Assembly: GCA_963703285.1 (NCBI GenBank)
Contig: OY969807.1
Location: 832,001-896,000, forward strand
Length of the DNA: 64,000 nucleotides
DNA from: an uncultured Nitrososphaerota archaeon
Lineage (GTDB): Archaea; Thermoproteota; Nitrososphaeria; Nitrososphaerales; Gagatemarchaeaceae
Direction: 5' to 3'
Shown: positions 7,124-64,000 of the stretch, piece by piece
Numbering within the stretch: the first letter of the stretch is position 1
How the letters are laid out: every line of letters begins with the position of its first letter
Notes under the pieces: model-generated
Database searches by the model: none
Seen by the model: the letters and a program-made list of their open reading frames with translations, nothing else
Told to the model about the DNA's origin: nothing
Made by a program: the position numbers and the translations under genes

Positions 7124-7384
7124 TGGAATCCTTCTGTACTGGATACCCGCGACGTATATACGAATTACGACACGGAATTCATGCATCTGACGCACAAGAA
7201 GAGGACGGAGGACGTAGGGGTTAAAGCCCGGTGATGCGAAAGTATCACGCCGGGTTGGGAGGGAGGGTGCGTGCTTCCTGCCCGAAGTGATTTGGGCGTG
7301 GCAGCGCACTCTTACCTCAGGACAGAAACAAGAAGGTCCTAGACCTGATCTACGAGCCCGACCGAGCCCCGATTGCGGATATAA

Positions 7385-54575: not shown

Positions 54576-55666
54576 GACTTCAGGAGCTGCAGCTTCTCTG
54601 GCAGGTACGTGTCGACTATGTAGCTCAGGCCGTACCTCGAGAAGGCCTCCTGCTCCGACTTCTTCTTGATCCTCAGGAACGTGTCGAGCTCCTCGTGCCA
54701 CATCTTGTCCTTGTAGCGCGGGTCTGCCTTCAGCTCGTAGAGCCTCTTGATGTCGACCTCGGTCAGCGGGTCGGACGGCAGCTTGTACTTTATGATATCT
54801 GAGGCCCAAACGCCTAACCAGACCCCGTCAGGGGTGGTGAGGTCCCGCAGGTGGGCCGCGGCCGCCGAGCCTGATTTTATCACCATCGCGATGTGAGCCC
54901 CCCATGGGTCGGCGTCGCAGAGTATCCCGATGGGGAGCTTCAGCTCCTGGTGTAGCCTCCTGAGCAGATAGCGGGTCGAACGGGGAGGCTGCCCGGCGGT
55001 GTTGACGAGTATCGCCTTGTACTTCTCGTGGACCTTCTCCTCGATGAACCTGGTGAAGAGGCCCCCCTTCTCTATGGCCAGGACCATCTCGGCGTCGGTG
55101 TCCCTGAACTCAGCGGTGGTGAGCGCCGGCCCGATCATCATCCCGTCGGGGTGCGCCGAGAGGTCGAGGCGCTTCCCCTCGTACCCTCTGACGGTGTACT
55201 CCACGGTCAGATTGCCGAAGATCGCGCTCCTCTCTTCGGGGAAGACGTTGAACTCCTCCCTGGCGGACTCGAGGACGACCTCGAGGTCGGTGATGAGCTC
55301 GTCCGACTCGGCCTGGTCCATGAACTCGACGTTGAAGGCCTGGGCGGAGTAGTAGACGTCCCTCAGCGTGGAGGTCCTCCCCTCGGCGACGAGCTTGTTG
55401 GAGAAGTATGCGAGCCAGAGCAGCTGCGTGAAGGGTCGGATGTGCTTTATGTTGCCAGCCGACCGCTTGACGGAGCTCGAGCCGAGGATGAACTGCTGCA
55501 GCTTCTTGTCGTAGACGATGTTGCGCACCGACCTGCTGGCGAACGAGACGCTGGGGAACTTCCCGTTGTCGAGGTCCTGGTAGACGTTCTGGCCGAGGGT
55601 CTTCAGGGCCCTCTCGACCTTGTCCTTCCTCTGCTCAGCGGTAGTCTTCGATCGTGGTCTGCTCAA
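54569..55666 (-). CDS. top6A: DNA topoisomerase VI subunit A
   Basis: STLRDVYY, IEKGG, DADPWG, KSEQEA. Confidence 0.96.
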   Translation of the reverse strand: MSRPRSKTTAEQRKDKVERALKTLGQNVYQDLDNGKFPSVSFASRSVRNIVYDKKLQQFILGSSSVKRSAGNIKHIRPFTQLLWLAYFSNKLVAEGRTSTLRDVYYSAQAFNVEFMDQAESDELITDLEVVLESAREEFNVFPEERSAIFGNLTVEYTVRGYEGKRLDLSAHPDGMMIGPALTTAEFRDTDAEMVLAIEKGGLFTRFIEEKVHEKYKAILVNTAGQPPRSTRYLLRRLHQELKLPIGILCDADPWGAHIAMVIKSGSAAAAHLRDLTTPDGVWLGVWASDIIKYKLPSDPLTEVDIKRLYELKADPRYKDKMWHEELDTFLRIKKKSEQEAFSRYGLSYIVDTYLPEKLQLLKSY

Positions 55667-58600
55667 TTATCTTCTCACCGTCAGCCCCGGCGCCCGGCTC
55701 GCCTGACTCCTGGGCCATCTCCTCCTTGACCTGCTCGACCTCCGACTCCTCCTCCTTCAGCAGCTGGTGGTATCTCGGCTCCTTCTTCTGACCGGCGAGC
55801 TCGGTGGAGAAACGTGCAATGAGGGGAAGGTACTTCCCGTAGATGTTCATCTTCCGCTGCACGGCCGCCATCGAGCCCTTCTTCGAGAGGAAGAGGGACA
55901 GGCGCCTGAGGGCCTCCCTCACGGCGTTGCGGATCTCCGACTGGATCTCGGGCCTGTCCGCGATGTACTCCTTGCCCACCGTCTTGTACGGCACCTTGGT
56001 GGAGCAGATGTGGGTGATGATCCCGATGGGAGCGTCCTCGGGGACGTGGTAGCGCCTCCAATCGATCTCCTCGTTGAGGACCTCGAACGACACGTCGTTG
56101 CCCTCGTCGTACAACAGGGGAATGCGGTTCGCGAACCTGAAGAGCTTGCGCCCGGGCTCGAGGACCTTCCCCCCGTAGGCCAGGCCCACCTCGACCAGGA
56201 ACGGGAACCCGGAGTAGGAGGACGGGGGCCGCACCACGACCGTACAGAACTCGGGCTGGAGCTCCTTGGTGATCCCAGTCTGGAGGATCGACTCGCCGAC
56301 GGGCGAGAGGCAGGACGCGTCGGGCGGGAGGAACTCGGGGTACCTCTGGAGAGCGTCGACGATCTTGACGGTCTGCTCGTTGGAGAGCTTCTCGGGCGAG
56401 AGCTTCGGTTCTATCCCTGCGAAGTTGAGGAACTTCTTCGCGTTCGTCTCTCCCACGCGGTGGAAGTGCTTGTTGCCCATGAACTTCTCCATCGTCTTCT
56501 CGTCGGTCAGCTTAATCATCCGCTTCAGCGCCTCCACGTCCACCCCGTAGGGATGCGGGAGGGTCTCCTTCGGCGGCGGGGGCATGGATTCCGTCGCCCT
56601 CTCGAAGGTCGTTATCCTGCCGATCGGGTCGACGAAGGTGAGGTTGGCGTAGGACCCGACGAGGGCAGTCTGCTTGAAGTACTCGTTGATCTTCTGCGCC
56701 GCCCGGGTGAAGTCGCCCTCCAGGATGACGTCGACCCTCGTCCCCGTCTTCCCGGCGCCGTCCTCCGTGTCCTTGCGAAGTATGATGGGCTTGTTCTCGG
56801 AGATGTCTATCAGCATCTCGAAGATGTGACGGGACTTGCCGTCGGTCGAGGTCGTGATCTTCACCGGCTTGTTTGTGGTGATCTGCCCGTAGAGGATGGC
56901 CATCGTCCCCCCCATCCCGAACATCCCCCTCGACTGCCTGAGGACGTACTTGGAGCCGTAGAAGACCTTCCCGAAGGCCCTCGGCACGTGGTGGGGGTCG
57001 ACCCCCGGGCCGTTGTCTGCCACGGTCAGCCGGTAGGCCTTCGGCTCCTGGTTGGCGGTCTCTGCCGAAGGGTCGTCGGCGACTATGCGGACGTATACGT
57101 CGGGGAGCATCCCGGCGAGCTCGGTCGCGTCAAGGGAGTTGTGGAGGAGAGCTACCGCGCCACCGCCGATGAAGCGCTCAACATCTTGCACGGCTATGTC
57201 GTAGACCCACTCCTCCGACGACGGGAATTCCTCGACACTCCTGATGGCCAGTGCGCCCGCATCGGATTCCGTTATCATCCGGAGAGGACCTGGAAGTTGT
57301 TCGGGCGAGAAGTTGTCCCTCAGCCACCCCTTTTGGACGGATGACCGGTAAATGTTCGATTTACGACCCGGGAACGGCAGTAGCGCGCTCTTGAATTGTG
57401 ATATTGGGAGGGAGCACTCCTCCGGGGCTTTACCCTGTCTAATGTAGATTAGATAGGTACCTCTGAAGCGTGTGTCGACCCCTGAAACTACCCTCTCTTC
57501 GGCTTCTTGGAAGGAAGTCGTGTAGTGCCGACCTAGAGTCGTAAGAAGGAACTTGAGTTCAGTGAACATCCTCTCGCTAGATGTCGCGATCGTTATCTTC
57601 CGATTCCGTTTGGCTGTCTGTACATAACCGTCCCCGCGAATGTAGGCGTTCAGATACTCTTCCGCATGTTGCTTGCTTACGTTGAAGACGACCCAGGGTA
57701 CCCGCTTATCAGATGAGCACGTTCCAGTCTCCAGGATAGATTGCATGAATAGGGCGAGCACGGCATCATTCACCACCACGTTAACAGCTGACCTGTGCTC
57801 GATTGTGATTATCGGTTTGATGTCGAAGACCTTGTCCAAACAACGGACCAGGTCTGCCACATAGGTTTCCATCTCGTCCCTTGCAAATGAGAAGGTCACC
57901 TTGCAACCGGCATGAATCGACCCCTCGCTTGCGTAGTAACCAAGAATCCTCATGAACTCGGGTGTAATCTCTATTTTCCGCGGCAGCGACCTCTTCCCTT
58001 GCTTTACTGAGAATCTGATGTCTGCGCTCTCCAACCCCGGTGGGGGGCTCGAACGGATATGCCCAAGTGGAACAGCGTCACACCTCACCCAGTCTTTGGG
58101 AATGCTATACACGCGCTTGAACCCGTGCTTCTCTGCCGGTTTGTACTCACCCCTTGACTCCGTGGATAGGGCTCCTCGTCGGCGAAGAGAATGTAGGATA
58201 TTGTCAGGATTGTGGATTCCGATTCGGGAAGCAGCGGCATGCACTTCTCTCCGCGACATCGTGGAGCCGTCTGCGGCAAGCAGGAGGAGTTCGGACTTCG
58301 AGCGAACCAGTGGATAGAGCCCAGCAACGCCCCTAACAACTATTCTACTCATGTCTCGAGTGTCCAAACGCGAGAACTCAGACAGGAGGTCAATTTCTTC
58401 GCATCTTCCTGTCACGAACTCGCCTGACGGTACTACCACTCTATCTCCAGGTATGAGATGCCTCGTCTCTCTCCCCACAACCCGAAGGTCATCGCCCATC
58501 ACGAAGACGTTGTGAACGGATGTAGTGGTGACTTCTTTACCGCTTTGAAGCCGAATCTTCCACAACGTCTTAGGGCTGGGGTGCTTGAAGACAGCTGTTA

Positions 58601-58911
58601 CGCGCTTGAAGGAGAACTTGAGGTCCTGGTCAAGCGTTAAGACCTCCAGCTGGTCTTCTAGGTGTTTGTACCACCGGTTGTCTGCCGAGATTGCGCCACC
58701 TGTAGCCAGCCTCCGCTCAACCACCTCGCCTATCGTCGTAACTCTGATTCGTCCATCTTCCCGAATCAGTAAAGGCTCACCGTAAGGGAAGGAGTTCTCG
58801 ACGAGCTCGCGGACGGCCATGTAGAGCGCCCTCGCAGGGTTGGTGAACCCCGCCAGGTCTCTGTTACGATAGAAAGAATTCAGACGGACTTATCTCAGAG
58901 AAAGTAACCAA
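55635..58911 (-). CDS. top6B: DNA topoisomerase VI subunit B with intein; apparent +1 frameshift near 58873
   Basis: ISPSEFF(Y)RNRDLAGF...RELVEN[intein]SLDA, DNGPG, QSRGMFGMG, RFANRIPL. Confidence 0.95.
57138..58793 (-). mobile_element. 552-aa intein with LAGLIDADG endonuclease in Top6B
   Basis: starts SFPYGEP, block B TTTSVH, ILGYYASEG and LNAYIRGDG, VYDIAV, ends LLHN|S; removal restores ELVENSLDA. Confidence 0.95.
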
Positions 58912-59460: not shown

Positions 59461-59572
59461 GCGCGGAGCGCCTTCCTAAATCTGATTTAAATCTAGGTCG
59501 TCGTTGCGCTCTGGGCCTCTTGAGGGCCAACAGACAACTTAATTACTCGCCGCAGTCGCGCCGGTCAGGAAA

Positions 59573-59782
59573 ATGACCCTCGACGCGCCTGGCTCCAGGG
59601 TGAGCATGATAATCCGCCTCGTCGGATTGATGTTGCTCGCTCTTGGGGTGGTCCTGACGTACGAGACCTACAGCACGGCTGCGGCGGCTGACCTGGTCCC
59701 CCAGATCGTTCCGGTGTTCTACCTCGGTGCGGCGCTGCTGATGATCGTCGGCTTCGTGGCCGTAATCGCGGACTACAAGTAG
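59573..59782 (+). CDS. small two-TM membrane protein
   Basis: ATG after a TTAATTA box; two hydrophobic helices. Confidence 0.65.
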   Translation: MTLDAPGSRVSMIIRLVGLMLLALGVVLTYETYSTAAAADLVPQIVPVFYLGAALLMIVGFVAVIADYK

Positions 59783-59933
59783 GACTTGCGTTAAACGGGG
59801 TCCGGCGTTGAGCCGCAGACCCTAGAGAACGCTGGGAGCGGTGCGGGTCGCGAAGATGTCTTGCGATTGGAAGCACTTCTGGGGGTTATATATCAGCACG
59901 TTGCGATCGACGCAGAAAAGGTGAAGCTTCGGA

Positions 59934-60431
59934 TTGGAATCGAAGCCAGTTCGTGACCAGGGAACGCACGCTATCAGAGGGGTCATCATCGTCACGATTG
60001 CGGTCCTGATAATCGCTGCGGGGATTGCGTTCGTCTACGCCAACCCGTCAACGGCCGCCTCCGTGTCGACCCTTCCTGCCCACCTCACCAGCAGCGGCAG
60101 CTCAGGTTCCGTAACCGCGGCCTCGACGTCCAGCGTCAATGACACCGGTGTGGTCTACGTGTACCTTCCATATGGGGGAGGGGAGAACTATGACGGAGCC
60201 ACCCAGCCCCAACCTCAGGTAATCACCGTCCTCATCGGGGTGAACAACACTGTGACCTGGATCAACCAGGACCTCATCACTCACGACGTCATCAGCACGA
60301 CGGGCACCTTCGCTTCGCCGGACCTGTCGCCGGGACAGAGCTACACCTTCACGTTCACGGAGGCGGGAACATATCCATACTACGATTCCTACACCCCCAT
60401 GCAGGGCTGGGTCATAGTCGAGAATCCGTAA
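59934..60431 (+). CDS. membrane-anchored cupredoxin-fold protein
   Basis: TVTWINQD...HDV...PGQSYTFTF..GTYPYY...MQG. Confidence 0.82.
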   Translation: MESKPVRDQGTHAIRGVIIVTIAVLIIAAGIAFVYANPSTAASVSTLPAHLTSSGSSGSVTAASTSSVNDTGVVYVYLPYGGGENYDGATQPQPQVITVLIGVNNTVTWINQDLITHDVISTTGTFASPDLSPGQSYTFTFTEAGTYPYYDSYTPMQGWVIVENP

Positions 60432-60485
60432 CGCTCAAGGGGAGCACGAAACGAAGGGATAGCCACTTGTTGGGATTGTGGTGGA

Positions 60486-60633
60486 CGGCGCCGGGCCGAC
60501 TCGAACGGCCGACCAACAGGTGTTTGCAGCGAGTTTTCGCTTTAACAGCCTGCTGCTTTCCGGGCCCCTTATCGGGGCTCTACCATGCTCCTCGGACGAG
60601 TCGATAGCGACACGGCCTCTGAGCTACGGCGCC
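60486..60633 (-). tRNA. tRNA-Asn(GUU) with three introns (60588-60618, 60558-60579, 60522-60542)
   Basis: removing 31+22+21 nt leaves a 74-nt cloverleaf GGCGCCG-TA-GCTC-AGCATGGTA-GAGC-A-GCAGG-CTGTTAA-CCTGT-TGGTC-GGCCG-TTCGAGT-CGGCC-CGGCGCC-G. Confidence 0.9.
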
Positions 60634-60827
60634 ATGCAGCGCCCGTCTCGATTTCTTCCTTATTTGGCCTTTGCTCTGAGCCCGTGCGCTTTCAGGCCGA
60701 GAGTTTTGACCAGGAATGCAAAAGGCAACCCGCGAGGGCCTAATCCGGCTTCAATCCCAAATGAACAGGCCAGGCTTCCAGTCCGATATGAGTGGGTGCT
60801 TAAGTTCCCAGAGCACCTCTAGATTCA

Positions 60828-61379
60828 TTGATAAAGAAGACCGCCCTTGTCGACTTGCTACAGCAACATCTGTCGACTGAAAGAATTGCGAAGAAACTCA
60901 ACTGCAGTCCCGGCAACGTCCTCTACTGGGAGCGGAAGTATGGACTTCGGCCGGCCTTCGCCTCCTTCGGAAACGGACGAAGAATGAGATCACCCGAAGA
61001 AATGGCCGCATATATGACTAGCAACCCAACACTTCGCCGCAGGAAATTGAAGGCAAAGGCAATCGCCTTCAAGGGTGGGAAATGCGTGTTGTGCGGGTAC
61101 GACAGATGCAACGCCGCTTTGGAGTTTCACCACGTTGATAGGAGAACGAAGACCTTCGGTCTTTCCAGAAAAGGCATCATCAGGTCATGGGATTCGATCA
61201 AGAAGGAAATCGACAAATGCCTGCTGGTCTGCTCGAATTGCCACCGGGAGGTGGAAGCAGGCGCCAGGCCCATCCTGAAGGAATTGCTTAATCCTTGGAC
61301 AAGATTTGAAAATGACCTCGCCTCTTCAGAAGATACAGTTTCGGTTACGGACGTTGTGAGCAGTCGGGAAGCGGGCTGA
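60828..61379 (+). CDS. HNH endonuclease with N-terminal HTH
   Basis: GGKCVLCGY...LEFHH...KCLLVCSNCHRE; IAKKLNCSPGNVLYW. Confidence 0.88.
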   Translation: MIKKTALVDLLQQHLSTERIAKKLNCSPGNVLYWERKYGLRPAFASFGNGRRMRSPEEMAAYMTSNPTLRRRKLKAKAIAFKGGKCVLCGYDRCNAALEFHHVDRRTKTFGLSRKGIIRSWDSIKKEIDKCLLVCSNCHREVEAGARPILKELLNPWTRFENDLASSEDTVSVTDVVSSREAG

Positions 61380-61439
61380 GTCGGGATTGGCAACGCCTGA
61401 ACAATCTTCCTCCGCACCAACAAGAACATCATGAATCGA

Positions 61440-61784
61440 CTCTGCTTGTGGGGAGCCCTGTTGCCCGTGATGGTGTAGGCGACCGACTCGCCCACGTCCT
61501 CAGCGTGGTCGGCTATCCTCTCCAGGTAGCGCAGGACCAGGGTTCCGGAGATGTAGCACTTCATGTCCCCGGTGTTATCCTTCGTGACCCTCCTGAGATA
61601 GCTCCGATATCTCGTCGACCGCGTTGTCCATTGTCTTCAGCTTCCCGGCGGAGAAGACGTCCCGCTCTGTGAATGCCTTGATGCTCAGGTGGATCATGTC
61701 CTGGGCCTGCTTCCCCGCCCTCTCTAGTGGGCTTTCGTGATTTGATCCTTCCTTCAAATTTCTCTCAGATTCTCTTTCGCACAC
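61440..61784 (-). pseudogene. PhoU remnant (truncated, frameshifted)
   Basis: AFTERDV...MDNAVDE and LRYLERIADHAEDVGE in different frames. Confidence 0.75.
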
Positions 61785-61921
61785 CGTGGGACCATGCGGT
61801 TCTCCCCGTTCTAGGAATTTCTCCGATTATCCTCGCGGTCGGCCCGAATGATTTGGGGGCAACACGTAAGAGATGCAAGACTTGGACCATTCCTTGAGGC
61901 GCCAAAACACCGGCGATTGAT

Positions 61922-62488
61922 ATGGCAAAGGAATCGGTCGCTCGAACGGTCGTCGTCTTCGGAGTCGTGATTCTGATAGCAGCGAGCTTGGGCGTCTACG
62001 GGATGGACATGAGAATCAGCGCTGCGACGTCGGCACCACCCACCACTTCCAGCATTCTCACCAGCTCCGCGACCGAGTCCACGACAACGACCAGCACAAG
62101 CGAGCCTAGCTCAACGTCGAGCACGACAGAGACTACGACAACGTCGAGCACTGCGGCGTCCAGCACAACGTCCACGGCGACGGGCGCGATAACGTTCTCG
62201 AGCCCCGCGTCGGGCGCATACATCATGCAGGGCCAGAGCCTCAACATCTCAGGAACCATCAACCCAACACCGACGTTACCTGATAGCGTCCTCATCCAGG
62301 TGCAGGAACAGAGCACCGTGGGCGACATCGACTCGGGGACGGCGGCCGTCCAAACTGGCGGTATGTTCTCCTACTCGATAGTGATAGGCTCCACCTGGGA
62401 CAACGCGATTTACATCATAACGGTCACCGACTCTTACGGCGCTTCCGGGAGCGAGAACATCGTGGTAAACTCGATGCCGTTTCCATGA
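61922..62488 (+). CDS. secreted Ser/Thr-rich protein with Ig-like C-terminal domain
   Basis: N-terminal TM, S/T linker, beta domain ending YIITVTDSYGASG. Confidence 0.7.
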   Translation: MAKESVARTVVVFGVVILIAASLGVYGMDMRISAATSAPPTTSSILTSSATESTTTTSTSEPSSTSSTTETTTTSSTAASSTTSTATGAITFSSPASGAYIMQGQSLNISGTINPTPTLPDSVLIQVQEQSTVGDIDSGTAAVQTGGMFSYSIVIGSTWDNAIYIITVTDSYGASGSENIVVNSMPFP

Positions 62489-63268
62489 GTTGAAAGAACG
62501 ACTGGACGATTTCGCTGCGGGACCAGCTCCCCTAACTCTTCAATGGCGCCGGTACACCCAACATGACCTTGGTAAACTCCTCGACCAAGTCCTCCGACCT
62601 GTCGGCGTCCCTGGTGAAAGGGCATTTGTTCCTGGTGAGGCCAACTCCCTTCGGAGTCCACCCCCTTCTCGTGAATCTCGATGCGGTCTGACCGCTTCTT
62701 TGGCTCTCTCTCGAGCTGATCTTTCTAATGCCGCACAACCTTGTTATCCTGTCTCCTCACAGAACGTTCTCGATTGCTTACGTGGTTCGTCCCCACGGTC
62801 TACAGGCCAGGAGCAAGACCCTAACTATCTTGCGCCAGAACGGGAGAGATTCCTCATGACTAGCGGGCTGCCGCTCGAATAGTCCTCGCCTGCCCCACTG
62901 GCACGGGACAATGCGATTCTTCAGCAACGTGAGGCAACTCAGCCGAGGTCGACGCGAGCCAGCGGCACATCGTCCACTGCCACAGGCGCGATAACGTTCT
63001 CGAGCCCAGGGGCGGGCACGACGTTCGTCGCGGTCAGACTTTGACCGTCTCGGGAGCCACAAACCCGTCTGAAAGACCGCGAGGCAGCAGACCGGCGAAA
63101 CTATGAGCTAGCGGTGCTCAAATCCCCAGTAGAACACCCGAACTCGGGCAATCGGGCGTGAAAGACGGTGCAGATCGACCGGATGCTCTGAAACAAGTTC
63201 GTTCAATGCAGATTCGACAGTGTTGACCGGGGCAATCAACTCTCGGCCCAGCAATTCTGGCTGAAGGG

Positions 63269-64000
63269 CTATAGGGGTATCAGCTTCAAGATCAACTGGA
63301 GCGCGAAGGCCCACATTACGAGTCCGAATCCCACTTTGACCCAGTTTGCGCGCGTCCGCACCATGAGTCTGGCGCCCAGAGTTCCGCCGACGGCTACGGC
63401 TAGGAGGGTTGGAAGGATTAGGGAGTAGTCTAGGTGCCCGAAAGCAGAATGGCCCAAGACGCCGAACAGGGATGAAAAGATCACGACAAACCCCGCAGTT
63501 CCTGCCGACAACTTCGTTGGAACCTTGTATGCGAATATCAGGAAGGGAACGATAAGGATTCCGCCGCCTACGCCCAAGAGTCCTGAGATAACTCCGACCC
63601 CAAGACTGAAGAGTACTATGATTGCGTAGGTCAGTCGCGATGGCCGCTTCTGACCAACTTCGGCCACTTGCGTCTTCTCCCAGTGCGTGTACACCATCCT
63701 GCTCCCTGCTCCTCCGAGGAAGACGACGAAAATCCACAATAGCAAGGTAGTACTGACGAAGTTTCCGGCCGCACCGCCGAGGAACGACCCCACTACAATT
63801 CCTGGAATGAAACGCGAGAGCAAGACGGAGGTCGACAAGCCTAGAGCGATAGTACACGATGGTAGCGAACAACGCCGTAATCAGGTTGAGGACGAGTGAC
63901 GCGGAGACGGATACGAGGGTCGCATAGCCCAGGATGAAGAGGATAGGAGTGTAGAGCGACCCTCCACCCTGACCGAACATGGAGAAGACAAACGAAACGA
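63269..64000 (-). CDS. TauE/SafE (TSUP) sulfite exporter family; frameshift near 63810; 5' end off window
   Basis: MFGQGGGSLYTP and SGLLGVGGGILIVP in different frames joined at gcgtttcattcc. Confidence 0.85.

Follow-up and report, generated by a model that had tools for sequence, protein, structure and literature searches.

Near one end of a 64,000-nucleotide (nt) window, the whole stretch of DNA analysed here (positions 832,001 to 896,000 of contig OY969807.1, numbered from 1), an uncultured soil archaeon of the Gagatemarchaeaceae carries an open reading frame (ORF) that is predicted to encode a nuclease with a helix-turn-helix (HTH) and an HNH domain, divergent from a tRNA-Asn gene interrupted by three introns. 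A first-pass annotation of the window had described this pair as ~195 bp apart, and we confirm it, with 194 nt between the 5' end of the tRNA gene (60633) and the start of the ORF (60828). The genome, a single contig of 2.25 Mb with a G+C content of 60.6%, is referred to as G000; other G numbers denote genomes of relatives and L numbers individual loci. The features of the locus are listed below.

60486..60633, minus strand: tRNA-Asn(GUU) gene, 148 nt, from ARAGORN in intron mode and an exon parse against the intron-less alleles of relatives
60633-60619, 60587-60577, 60554-60543 and 60521-60486, minus strand: tRNA-Asn exons, 74 nt in total
60588..60618, minus strand: intron 1 (31 nt), which follows nt 15 of the tRNA in the D-loop; position of the boundary ambiguous within 2 nt
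60555..60576, minus strand: intron 2, 22 nt, at position 25/26, the junction of D-stem and anticodon stem
60522..60542, minus strand: intron 3, 21 nt, at the canonical 37/38 position
60661..60674, minus strand: conserved GCAAAGGCCAAATA box, 28-41 nt upstream of tRNA-Asn, putative B recognition element (BRE)/TATA promoter
60828..61379, plus strand: HTH-HNH endonuclease gene (predicted), 183 amino acids (aa), TTG start, intact
60837..60938, plus strand: N-terminal HTH domain (predicted), residues 4-37; Pfam HTH_28 below cut-off, three helices in the model
61074..61262, plus strand: HNH beta-beta-alpha-metal core (predicted) with CxxC...CxxC zinc site, residues 83-145
61442..61784, minus strand: PhoU-like flanking gene, in two frames in this genome

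Read from 60633 to 60486 on the minus strand, the tRNA gene is a 74-nt tRNA-Asn(GUU) split by inserts of 31, 22 and 21 nt. It was not detected by ARAGORN with default settings or by Rfam at the gathering score; in intron mode ARAGORN places it at genome positions 892482-892634 (window 60482-60634) as the sole tRNA-Asn among 41 calls in G000, and at a loose Rfam threshold it scores 14.6 bits. The intron boundaries are independent of folding; they were set from relatives in which one, two or all three inserts are missing at exactly these points: intron 1 is precisely missing in G009, G013 and L292, intron 2 in 12 of 25 distinct genus-type alleles and in all eight sister-genus alleles, and intron 3 in G015, G017, G004, G008, G002 and L117. 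The 74-nt spliced form is identical to the intron-less alleles of relatives, and exact excision gives a canonical tRNA. The precursor folds with z = -4.4, and intron 1 forms a hairpin of its own. Read by hand on this fold, the 37/38 intron fits a relaxed bulge-helix-bulge with 3-nt bulges and a central helix of three pairs plus a C.A mismatch, and the D-loop and position-26 introns form hairpins with junctions at helix ends, for which a strict bulge-helix-bulge is not demonstrable. All three are read as ordinary archaeal tRNA introns of this lineage, predicted to be protein-spliced and, by their distribution, dispensable for residence of the nuclease. The GCAAAGGCCAAATA box, identical or nearly so in 14 of the loci compared, is likely to be the BRE/TATA promoter of the tRNA gene.

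An HNH family devoted to tRNA-Asn genes

The 183-aa protein matches PHROG family 2255, 'HNH endonuclease', with E = 5.9e-28 over residues 61-157, and eight further PHROG HNH families at E < 1e-3; in Pfam, HTH_28 falls below its cut-off with E = 5.7e-4. The residues that are invariant in an alignment of 21 sequences (C86, C89, C135, C138 and H139) are all present, as are the near-invariant H101, H102 and N137, and the protein has the residues expected of the HNH superfamily, namely a first-strand catalytic His, a metal-binding helix His/Asn and two zinc-site CxxC pairs. An AlphaFold (AF2) model with a mean predicted local distance difference test score (pLDDT) of 82.6 has a three-helix N-terminal domain at residues 4-37 (pLDDT 85-93) and a beta-beta-alpha core at 98-144, composed of strands 98-102 and 131-135 and helix 136-144 (block pLDDT 82-97). 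The top-ranking Foldseek matches, all of them weak (E >= 0.1), are almost exclusively to HNH nucleases (Cap5, the Cas9 HNH domain, Gme HNH and T4 endonuclease VII). A search of PDB sequences with the family profile returned HTH-level or marginal matches only, and an NCBIfam search of the protein nothing meaningful. Among homologues, residues 1-150 are conserved and residues 151-183 form a lineage-specific tail.

Relatives detected with the family profile are encoded in 581 of 600 matched stretches of species-representative genomes. Distances to the nearest tRNA were tallied for the best 80 loci in each of three collections, a locus being counted as inside when it lies within a tRNA intron longer than 300 nt.

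Genome contigs: inside a tRNA intron 58; up to 100 nt away 15; 101-350 nt 1; more than 350 nt 0; no tRNA called 6
Metagenome contigs: inside 31; up to 100 nt 21; 101-350 nt 10; more than 350 nt 1; no tRNA 17 (12 of them short-flanked)
Viral contigs: inside 3; up to 100 nt 42; 101-350 nt 16; more than 350 nt 4; no tRNA called 15

In the genome collection, 73 of the best 80 loci are therefore in a tRNA anticodon-loop intron or within 100 nt of a tRNA, against a background of just 17 tRNAs in 326,282 nt of outer flank. Proximity is less specific at the viral loci because these sit in dense tRNA arrays (216 tRNAs in 150,671 nt of outer flank); tRNA-Asn is nevertheless the commonest neighbour there, at 21 of 61 tRNA-proximal loci.

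Nearly all tRNAs at these 73 genome-collection loci can be read as tRNA-Asn(GUU), and the bacterial relatives that share the core domain reside in group I introns of its anticodon loop. Rfam finds a group I intron (RF00028) in 7 of 10 bacterial loci scanned, and two Solirubrobacteraceae loci among the ten have an intact tRNA beside the gene instead. Bacterial tRNA-Asn has U1-A72 and G73. Of 90 intron hosts, 89 start with T and 82 allow the parse stem-CUGU/intron...G/UAA-stem, which is a tRNA-Asn(GUU) split between U35 and U36. ARAGORN labels many of these hosts (L034-L193) Thr(UGU/CGU), His, Glu, Ser or Leu, since a 2-nt repeat at the splice sites permits two parses; 53 of 59 hosts with a non-Asn label are readable as Asn, and we rejected these labels as misparses. 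The labels Met and Gly at archaeal metagenome loci are likewise misparses, here of multi-intron tRNA-Asn.

Full-length HTH-HNH relatives in the Solirubrobacterales are free-standing, share 38-41% identity over residues 2-149 with the archaeal protein, and lie 17-80 nt from intron-less tRNA-Asn; more generally, tRNA-Asn is found a few tens of bases from the full-length relatives of Actinomycetota and from many phage relatives. In a tree of the core domain, scored with the Shimodaira-Hasegawa-like approximate likelihood ratio test (SH-aLRT), the archaeal copies (85) and the Solirubrobacterales copies (97) fall outside a large intron-borne clade (95). This is one HNH family devoted to tRNA-Asn genes in bacteria, phages and archaea.

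Presence, absence and decay of the archaeal gene

Of 22 other genomes of the genus, nine have the HNH gene. Elsewhere in the family, 74 genomes gave three weak matches only; for two sister genera, the profile found two weak matches only in 58 genomes. Homologues from metagenomes share 49-87% identity and are mostly 150-160 aa long. A divergent tRNA-Asn adjoins the HNH gene in G011, G017, G020, G015 and G004, and of 15 archaeal-type metagenome loci, 10 have tRNA-Asn beside the gene and five offer no more than 296 nt of sequence on the relevant side. Every archaeal homologue with sufficient flank thus keeps the pairing with tRNA-Asn. Among the remaining genomes, the match is interrupted by a contig end in G012 and G003, G019 holds only a 36% relative, and G014 has a remnant 1.4 kb from its tRNA-Asn. 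At this last locus (L019; G014:C8:545127-548280) a 402-aa ORF lies between the remnant and the tRNA, and the PhoU-like gene lies beyond the tRNA, a gene order that indicates local rearrangement.

The HNH gene occupies a block of ~600-700 bp just beyond the promoter box of the tRNA, the GCAAAGGCCAAATA box forming its tRNA-proximal edge, and this block is either present or cleanly absent in two genomic contexts. In the first, the order PhoU-[HNH]-tRNA in G000, G015, G004 and L114 contrasts with PhoU-tRNA in G009, G010 and G001; in the second, QueE-[HNH]-tRNA in G017, L122 and L123 contrasts with QueE-tRNA in G007. The empty sites listed were read on contiguous DNA. The copies themselves are in every state of repair. 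Seven are intact (G000, G011, L114, L115, L116, L117 and L128), and about 11 are either disrupted or altered at a catalytic or zinc residue: frameshifted in G017, G004 and L123, frameshifted with a premature stop in L125, prematurely stopped only in G020, truncated in G015, G014, G012 and L122, and mutated at a zinc or catalytic residue in L119/L121 (C135Y) and L120 (H139N). One further copy, in G006, is a remnant of ~17 codons. Of 21 intact-copy pairs, nine have an unsaturated dS, and in these the ratio of nonsynonymous to synonymous substitution rates (dN/dS) ranges from 0.07 to 0.15, from which intact copies are judged to be under strong purifying selection.

The coexistence of intact, frameshifted, truncated, remnant and absent states with a dN/dS of ~0.1 is that of a homing-endonuclease life cycle, and we consider it probable, at roughly 0.7, that the ORF belongs to an HNH family specialised on tRNA-Asn genes and acts as a free-standing homing endonuclease gene. 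Under such a cycle the HTH would bring the protein to the tRNA-Asn gene, or to DNA close by, in chromosomes without the HNH gene, and the HNH site would nick or cut the bound DNA; recombinational repair from a copy-bearing chromosome would then transfer the HNH gene, with adjoining tRNA sequence, into the cut chromosome, and after fixation the gene would decay and finally be lost. Movement between lineages is suggested, although not proven, by a mismatch between the HNH tree and host relatedness, for which we used an RpoB domain as the marker (an RNase J-like gene was dropped because a 41% paralogue was matched in several genomes). The G000 copy groups with those of G017 and L114 (SH-aLRT 98), whereas by RpoB G017 belongs to a more distant group (93% identity to G000) and the closer G015 (97%) and G004 (96%) both carry other HNH lineages.

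Alternatively, one could envision a domesticated protein that serves its host at tRNA-Asn, for example as a regulator or repair factor, and is dispensable in some lineages. The strong purifying selection on intact copies and the stable position beside one essential single-copy gene would suit such a role. However, most genomes of the genus lack the gene or have a broken copy, its relatives reside in self-splicing introns and phage tRNA arrays, and the conserved part comprises the catalytic and zinc residues rather than the HTH alone, so that we hold domestication to be very unlikely.

The first-pass annotation had also cautioned that tRNA genes are generic integration hotspots, and indeed tRNA genes are common integration sites, so the ORF could in principle be a chance neighbour or the cargo of an integrated element. 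The comparative data contradict both readings. The block holds a single gene and lies on the 5' (promoter) side of the tRNA. Repeat scans of the locus found no duplicated tRNA segment, att-like repeat or tRNA relic, and no integrase-like ORF was noticed among the unannotated ORF translations of the 1.3 kb upstream, the flanks not having been searched with integrase profiles; an integrated element is unlikely on these grounds. As for chance, the pairing recurs across domains, and it is not confined to this one gene in the genome. An HNH paralogue consisting of the core only (genome 2251631-2251981, 41% identity) ends 31 nt upstream of a tRNA-Lys(CUU), which, read by hand, has introns at 37/38 and in the T-arm and runs from ~2252013 across the contig end to the contig start, as fits a circular chromosome. 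Of 16 LAGLIDADG_3 matches in the genome, eight lie in frames of 586-1681 aa and are presumably inteins, one lies in the 23S rRNA gene, and seven are free-standing, three of them 7-82 nt from tRNA-Gln, tRNA-Ser and tRNA-Cys. In total, five of nine free-standing nuclease ORFs (two HNH plus the LAGLIDADG genes) are within 200 nt of a tRNA, with a binomial P of ~1e-8 if 1% of the genome is assumed to be that close to one. We consider a chance or cargo origin extremely improbable, and the link between nuclease genes and tRNA genes strongly supported.

The tRNA-Gln case falls within the window, and here too the earlier description of a homing-type nuclease beside both window tRNAs holds: tRNA-Gln(UUG) at 27505-27598 (minus strand) is preceded on the same strand by a 245-aa LAGLIDADG ORF (27605-28342) that ends 6 nt upstream. 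Both pairings recur in relatives; that of LAGLIDADG and tRNA-Gln is kept in all five relatives with the gene (50-54% identity), in two of which tRNA-Gln is intron-less. Elsewhere in the genome, the ORF at 1311309-1312184 is convergent with tRNA-Ser (1312220-1312336), 36 nt from the tRNA 3' end, and that at 220660-221499 is convergent with an intron-less tRNA-Cys (221581-221652), 82 nt from the 3' end. The 23S rRNA gene (genome 1593200-1596000) holds a group I intron (RF00028, 54.6 bits) with a LAGLIDADG ORF at 1594287-1594844.

Several observations weigh against the interpretation of the HTH-HNH gene as a homing endonuclease gene, or limit it. The Pfam HNH model (PF01844) scores 14.6 bits against a cut-off of 21.4, a threshold the protein does not reach, and Foldseek gave no match in the PDB at E <= 0.001. 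The incongruence between HNH and RpoB compares a tree from a 98-column alignment with percent identities rather than with a species tree, and faster evolution of degenerate copies could mimic it. The genomes of the genus are incomplete metagenome-assembled genomes (54-96% complete), so that some copies scored as absent may be unassembled. Both the mobility of the gene and the cleavage activity of its product are what we infer, the former from distribution only. Finally, because the intact L117 copy adjoins a tRNA-Asn with an uninterrupted anticodon arm, and bacterial copies adjoin intact tRNA-Asn genes, the enzyme would have to spare its own neighbour, or its target would not simply be the anticodon loop.

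Other features of the window and its surroundings bear less directly on the locus. The PhoU-like gene (window 61127-61784, minus strand), a single frame in relatives, is in G000 divided into frames 61575-61784 and 61127-61564, a stop found in relatives being missing, and is either a pseudogene or an assembly error. Two long frames of 290 and 189 aa overlap at 63108-63998 (minus strand); the shorter resembles a membrane protein, and the overlap suggests a further frameshift or sequencing error. A 1061-aa ORF at 55635-58820 (minus strand) has ends that resemble topoisomerase VI subunit B, as judged by eye, and between them an intein-like insert with a LAGLIDADG_3 match (genome 889516-889659). 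A group II intron domain (Rfam RF00029, 45.5 bits) is matched at 7222-7320 (plus strand), where local G+C is lower, at 51-53%. Soil-metagenome contigs aligned on 59500-62500 were short fragments only, with no joints and none bridging the HNH block; one 371-nt contig (run X6) matches 60617-60634 and 61124-61273, the first piece being 18 nt, and nothing was concluded from it.

Intron content with and without the nuclease

Nucleases that target tRNA genes had been proposed in the first-pass annotation to select for or carry introns that immunise the site, a process that could explain intron proliferation. We compared 15 HNH-linked with 10 HNH-free tRNA-Asn alleles of the genus, omitting L118 and L126 (duplicates), L115, L116, L119, L124 and L127 (no tRNA in reach), and G012, G003 and G019.

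D-loop intron: 15/15 HNH-linked, 8/10 HNH-free, p = 0.15
Position-26 intron: 10/15 HNH-linked, 3/10 HNH-free, p = 0.11
37/38 intron: 11/15 HNH-linked, 8/10 HNH-free, p = 1
Mean intron number: 2.4 HNH-linked, 1.9 HNH-free, p = 0.11

Restricting the comparison to genus genomes gives means of 2.3 and 1.9 (p = 0.32). Four of 5 alleles beside an intact HNH gene carry the 37/38 intron, as do 7 of 10 beside a degenerate one, and L117 combines an apparently intact HNH gene with a tRNA-Asn whose anticodon arm is uninterrupted. Eight tRNA-Asn genes of the two sister genera, located by BLAST and an anticodon-motif search, have the D-loop intron in seven, the 37/38 intron in five and the position-26 intron in none. 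Across genome G000 as a whole, introns occur in 4 of 5 nuclease-adjacent tRNAs and in ~31 of 37 others, a count that takes five over-long unflagged ARAGORN calls as intron-bearing. Because alleles with and without the nuclease are alike in intron content, the presence of the nuclease neither requires nor enriches introns: the enrichment of intron-bearing alleles beside nucleases that the proposal predicted is not significant in the genus and not apparent in G000, no intron is significantly commoner on HNH-linked alleles, and neither immunisation of the site nor a nuclease-driven proliferation of introns is supported.

As a case of collaborative homing, the proposal would have the nuclease cut intron-less tRNA-Asn, one or more of the introns interrupt the recognition site and protect the host copy, and the resulting pressure select for intron gain. 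The layout is like that of F-CphI beside the intron-containing psbA gene (PMC6083498). Moreover, since the bacterial relatives insert between U35 and U36, the 37/38 and position-26 introns would lie within ~10 bp of the homologous target, and on HNH-linked alleles the D-loop intron is universal and a position-26 or 37/38 intron is found in 13 of 15. Against this, the absence of any significant excess on HNH-linked alleles is compounded by the D-loop intron in seven of eight alleles of sister genera that lack a strong HNH match, and by the presence of at least one of the position-26 and 37/38 introns in nine of the ten genus alleles without the HNH gene and in five of the eight from sister genera. 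L117 manages with an intact HNH gene and neither of these two introns, and intron-less tRNAs lie beside free-standing bacterial relatives and in two LAGLIDADG-tRNA-Gln pairs. We therefore regard protection by introns as quite unlikely.

A different connection, which would extend rather than replace the interpretation of the ORF as a homing endonuclease gene, is that HNH homing co-converts the adjoining tRNA-Asn and so carries introns without mobility of their own between lineages. Such a precedent exists in phage T4, where mobE is described as moving a defunct intron (PMC2790892). The position-26 intron is the candidate passenger: it is seen only in the HNH-bearing genus (0/8 in the sister genera) and is more frequent on alleles linked to the HNH gene; of its three carriers without that gene, two (G007 and G006) have an HNH-type promoter box, G006 with an HNH remnant as well; and its 22-nt and 24-nt forms depart from the RpoB groups, with G007 and G014 as exceptions. 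However, the difference has p = 0.11 with shared ancestry uncorrected, a single gain on one haplotype gives the same picture and fits equally, the metagenome loci were chosen by HNH presence, and a reliable allele tree cannot be built from such short sequences, so that co-conversion of this intron appears unlikely on present data. That free-standing homing endonucleases beside archaeal tRNA genes shape intron load at all, whether by shielding or by co-conversion, is doubtful; if true, co-conversion would be a DNA-level path of spread for non-canonical tRNA introns that have no mobility of their own.

Known systems and meaning of the locus

The analogy with SegB of phage T4 that the first-pass annotation drew is apt. 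SegB is a free-standing homing endonuclease in a tRNA gene cluster and is reported to cause the tRNA region to be inherited preferentially (PMC2330249). The likeness is that of a free-standing nuclease gene among or next to tRNA genes, with the difference that SegB is a GIY-YIG enzyme of a phage whose activity was demonstrated experimentally, whereas the archaeal gene is chromosomal, of the HNH type, and known from its sequence. HNH nickases also occur in the tRNA region of phage T5.

For the cyanophage S-PM2, protection by the psbA group I intron in concert with F-CphI is reported as demonstrated and termed 'collaborative homing' (PMC6083498). There too a free-standing nuclease gene stands beside an intron-containing gene, and the intron could block self-cleavage; the cyanophage intron is, however, a self-splicing group I intron, whereas those at tRNA-Asn are 21-31 nt long, predicted to be protein-spliced, and distributed without following the nuclease. 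Similarly, T4 mobE is a free-standing HNH gene reported to promote trans-homing of a defunct intron (PMC2790892), and is thus a model of how homing can mobilise a neighbouring intron, but it acts in a phage, on a protein-coding target and with a group I intron. The cyanobacterial tRNA-fMet intron is described as encoding an endonuclease for the anticodon region of the tRNA (as cited in PMC3984707), a region that the bacterial branch of the present HNH family would also target from within a group I intron, although the tRNA is another one and the window gene is free-standing and archaeal. We take the tRNA-fMet enzyme to belong to a different nuclease family.

In archaea, a survey of group I introns places all 39 in rRNA genes, with LAGLIDADG as the type of all nuclease ORFs, and its sections drawn on here report no tRNA-linked or HNH case (PMC6125680). 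The surveyed enzymes resemble the present one in being homing endonucleases of stable-RNA genes, and the 23S rRNA gene of G000 likewise holds a group I intron and a LAGLIDADG ORF. Randau and Soll have hypothesised that disruptions of tRNA genes persist because they guard against the integration of mobile elements (PMC4390854). Interrupting a tRNA gene would remove a target of mobile DNA, the same logic as that of the immunisation idea, but their hypothesis concerns site-specific integration of plasmids and viruses rather than homing endonucleases, and it is unsupported at this locus. In the literature searched, we found no account of archaeal chromosomes with free-standing homing endonucleases linked to tRNA genes, none of tRNA-Asn group I introns that carry an HNH gene, and none of this HNH family.

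The HNH gene beside tRNA-Asn, intact and of homing type, thus adds an archaeal representative to a kind of selfish element that is already known. What began as a hunch from two cases is now a documented rule that ties an HNH family to tRNA-Asn genes, a family that lives both as the rider of an anticodon-loop group I intron and as a free-standing neighbour of the tRNA. In practice, many bacterial tRNA-Asn genes that are split by an intron receive the wrong label, tRNA-Thr, from ARAGORN. In this soil archaeon, two unrelated families of free-standing nuclease genes cluster at tRNA genes, and the tRNA-Asn locus of its genus is a natural allele series, with different intron combinations, empty sites, and both intact and dead nucleases; the gain of archaeal tRNA introns, a long-standing question, is therefore testable at the bench.

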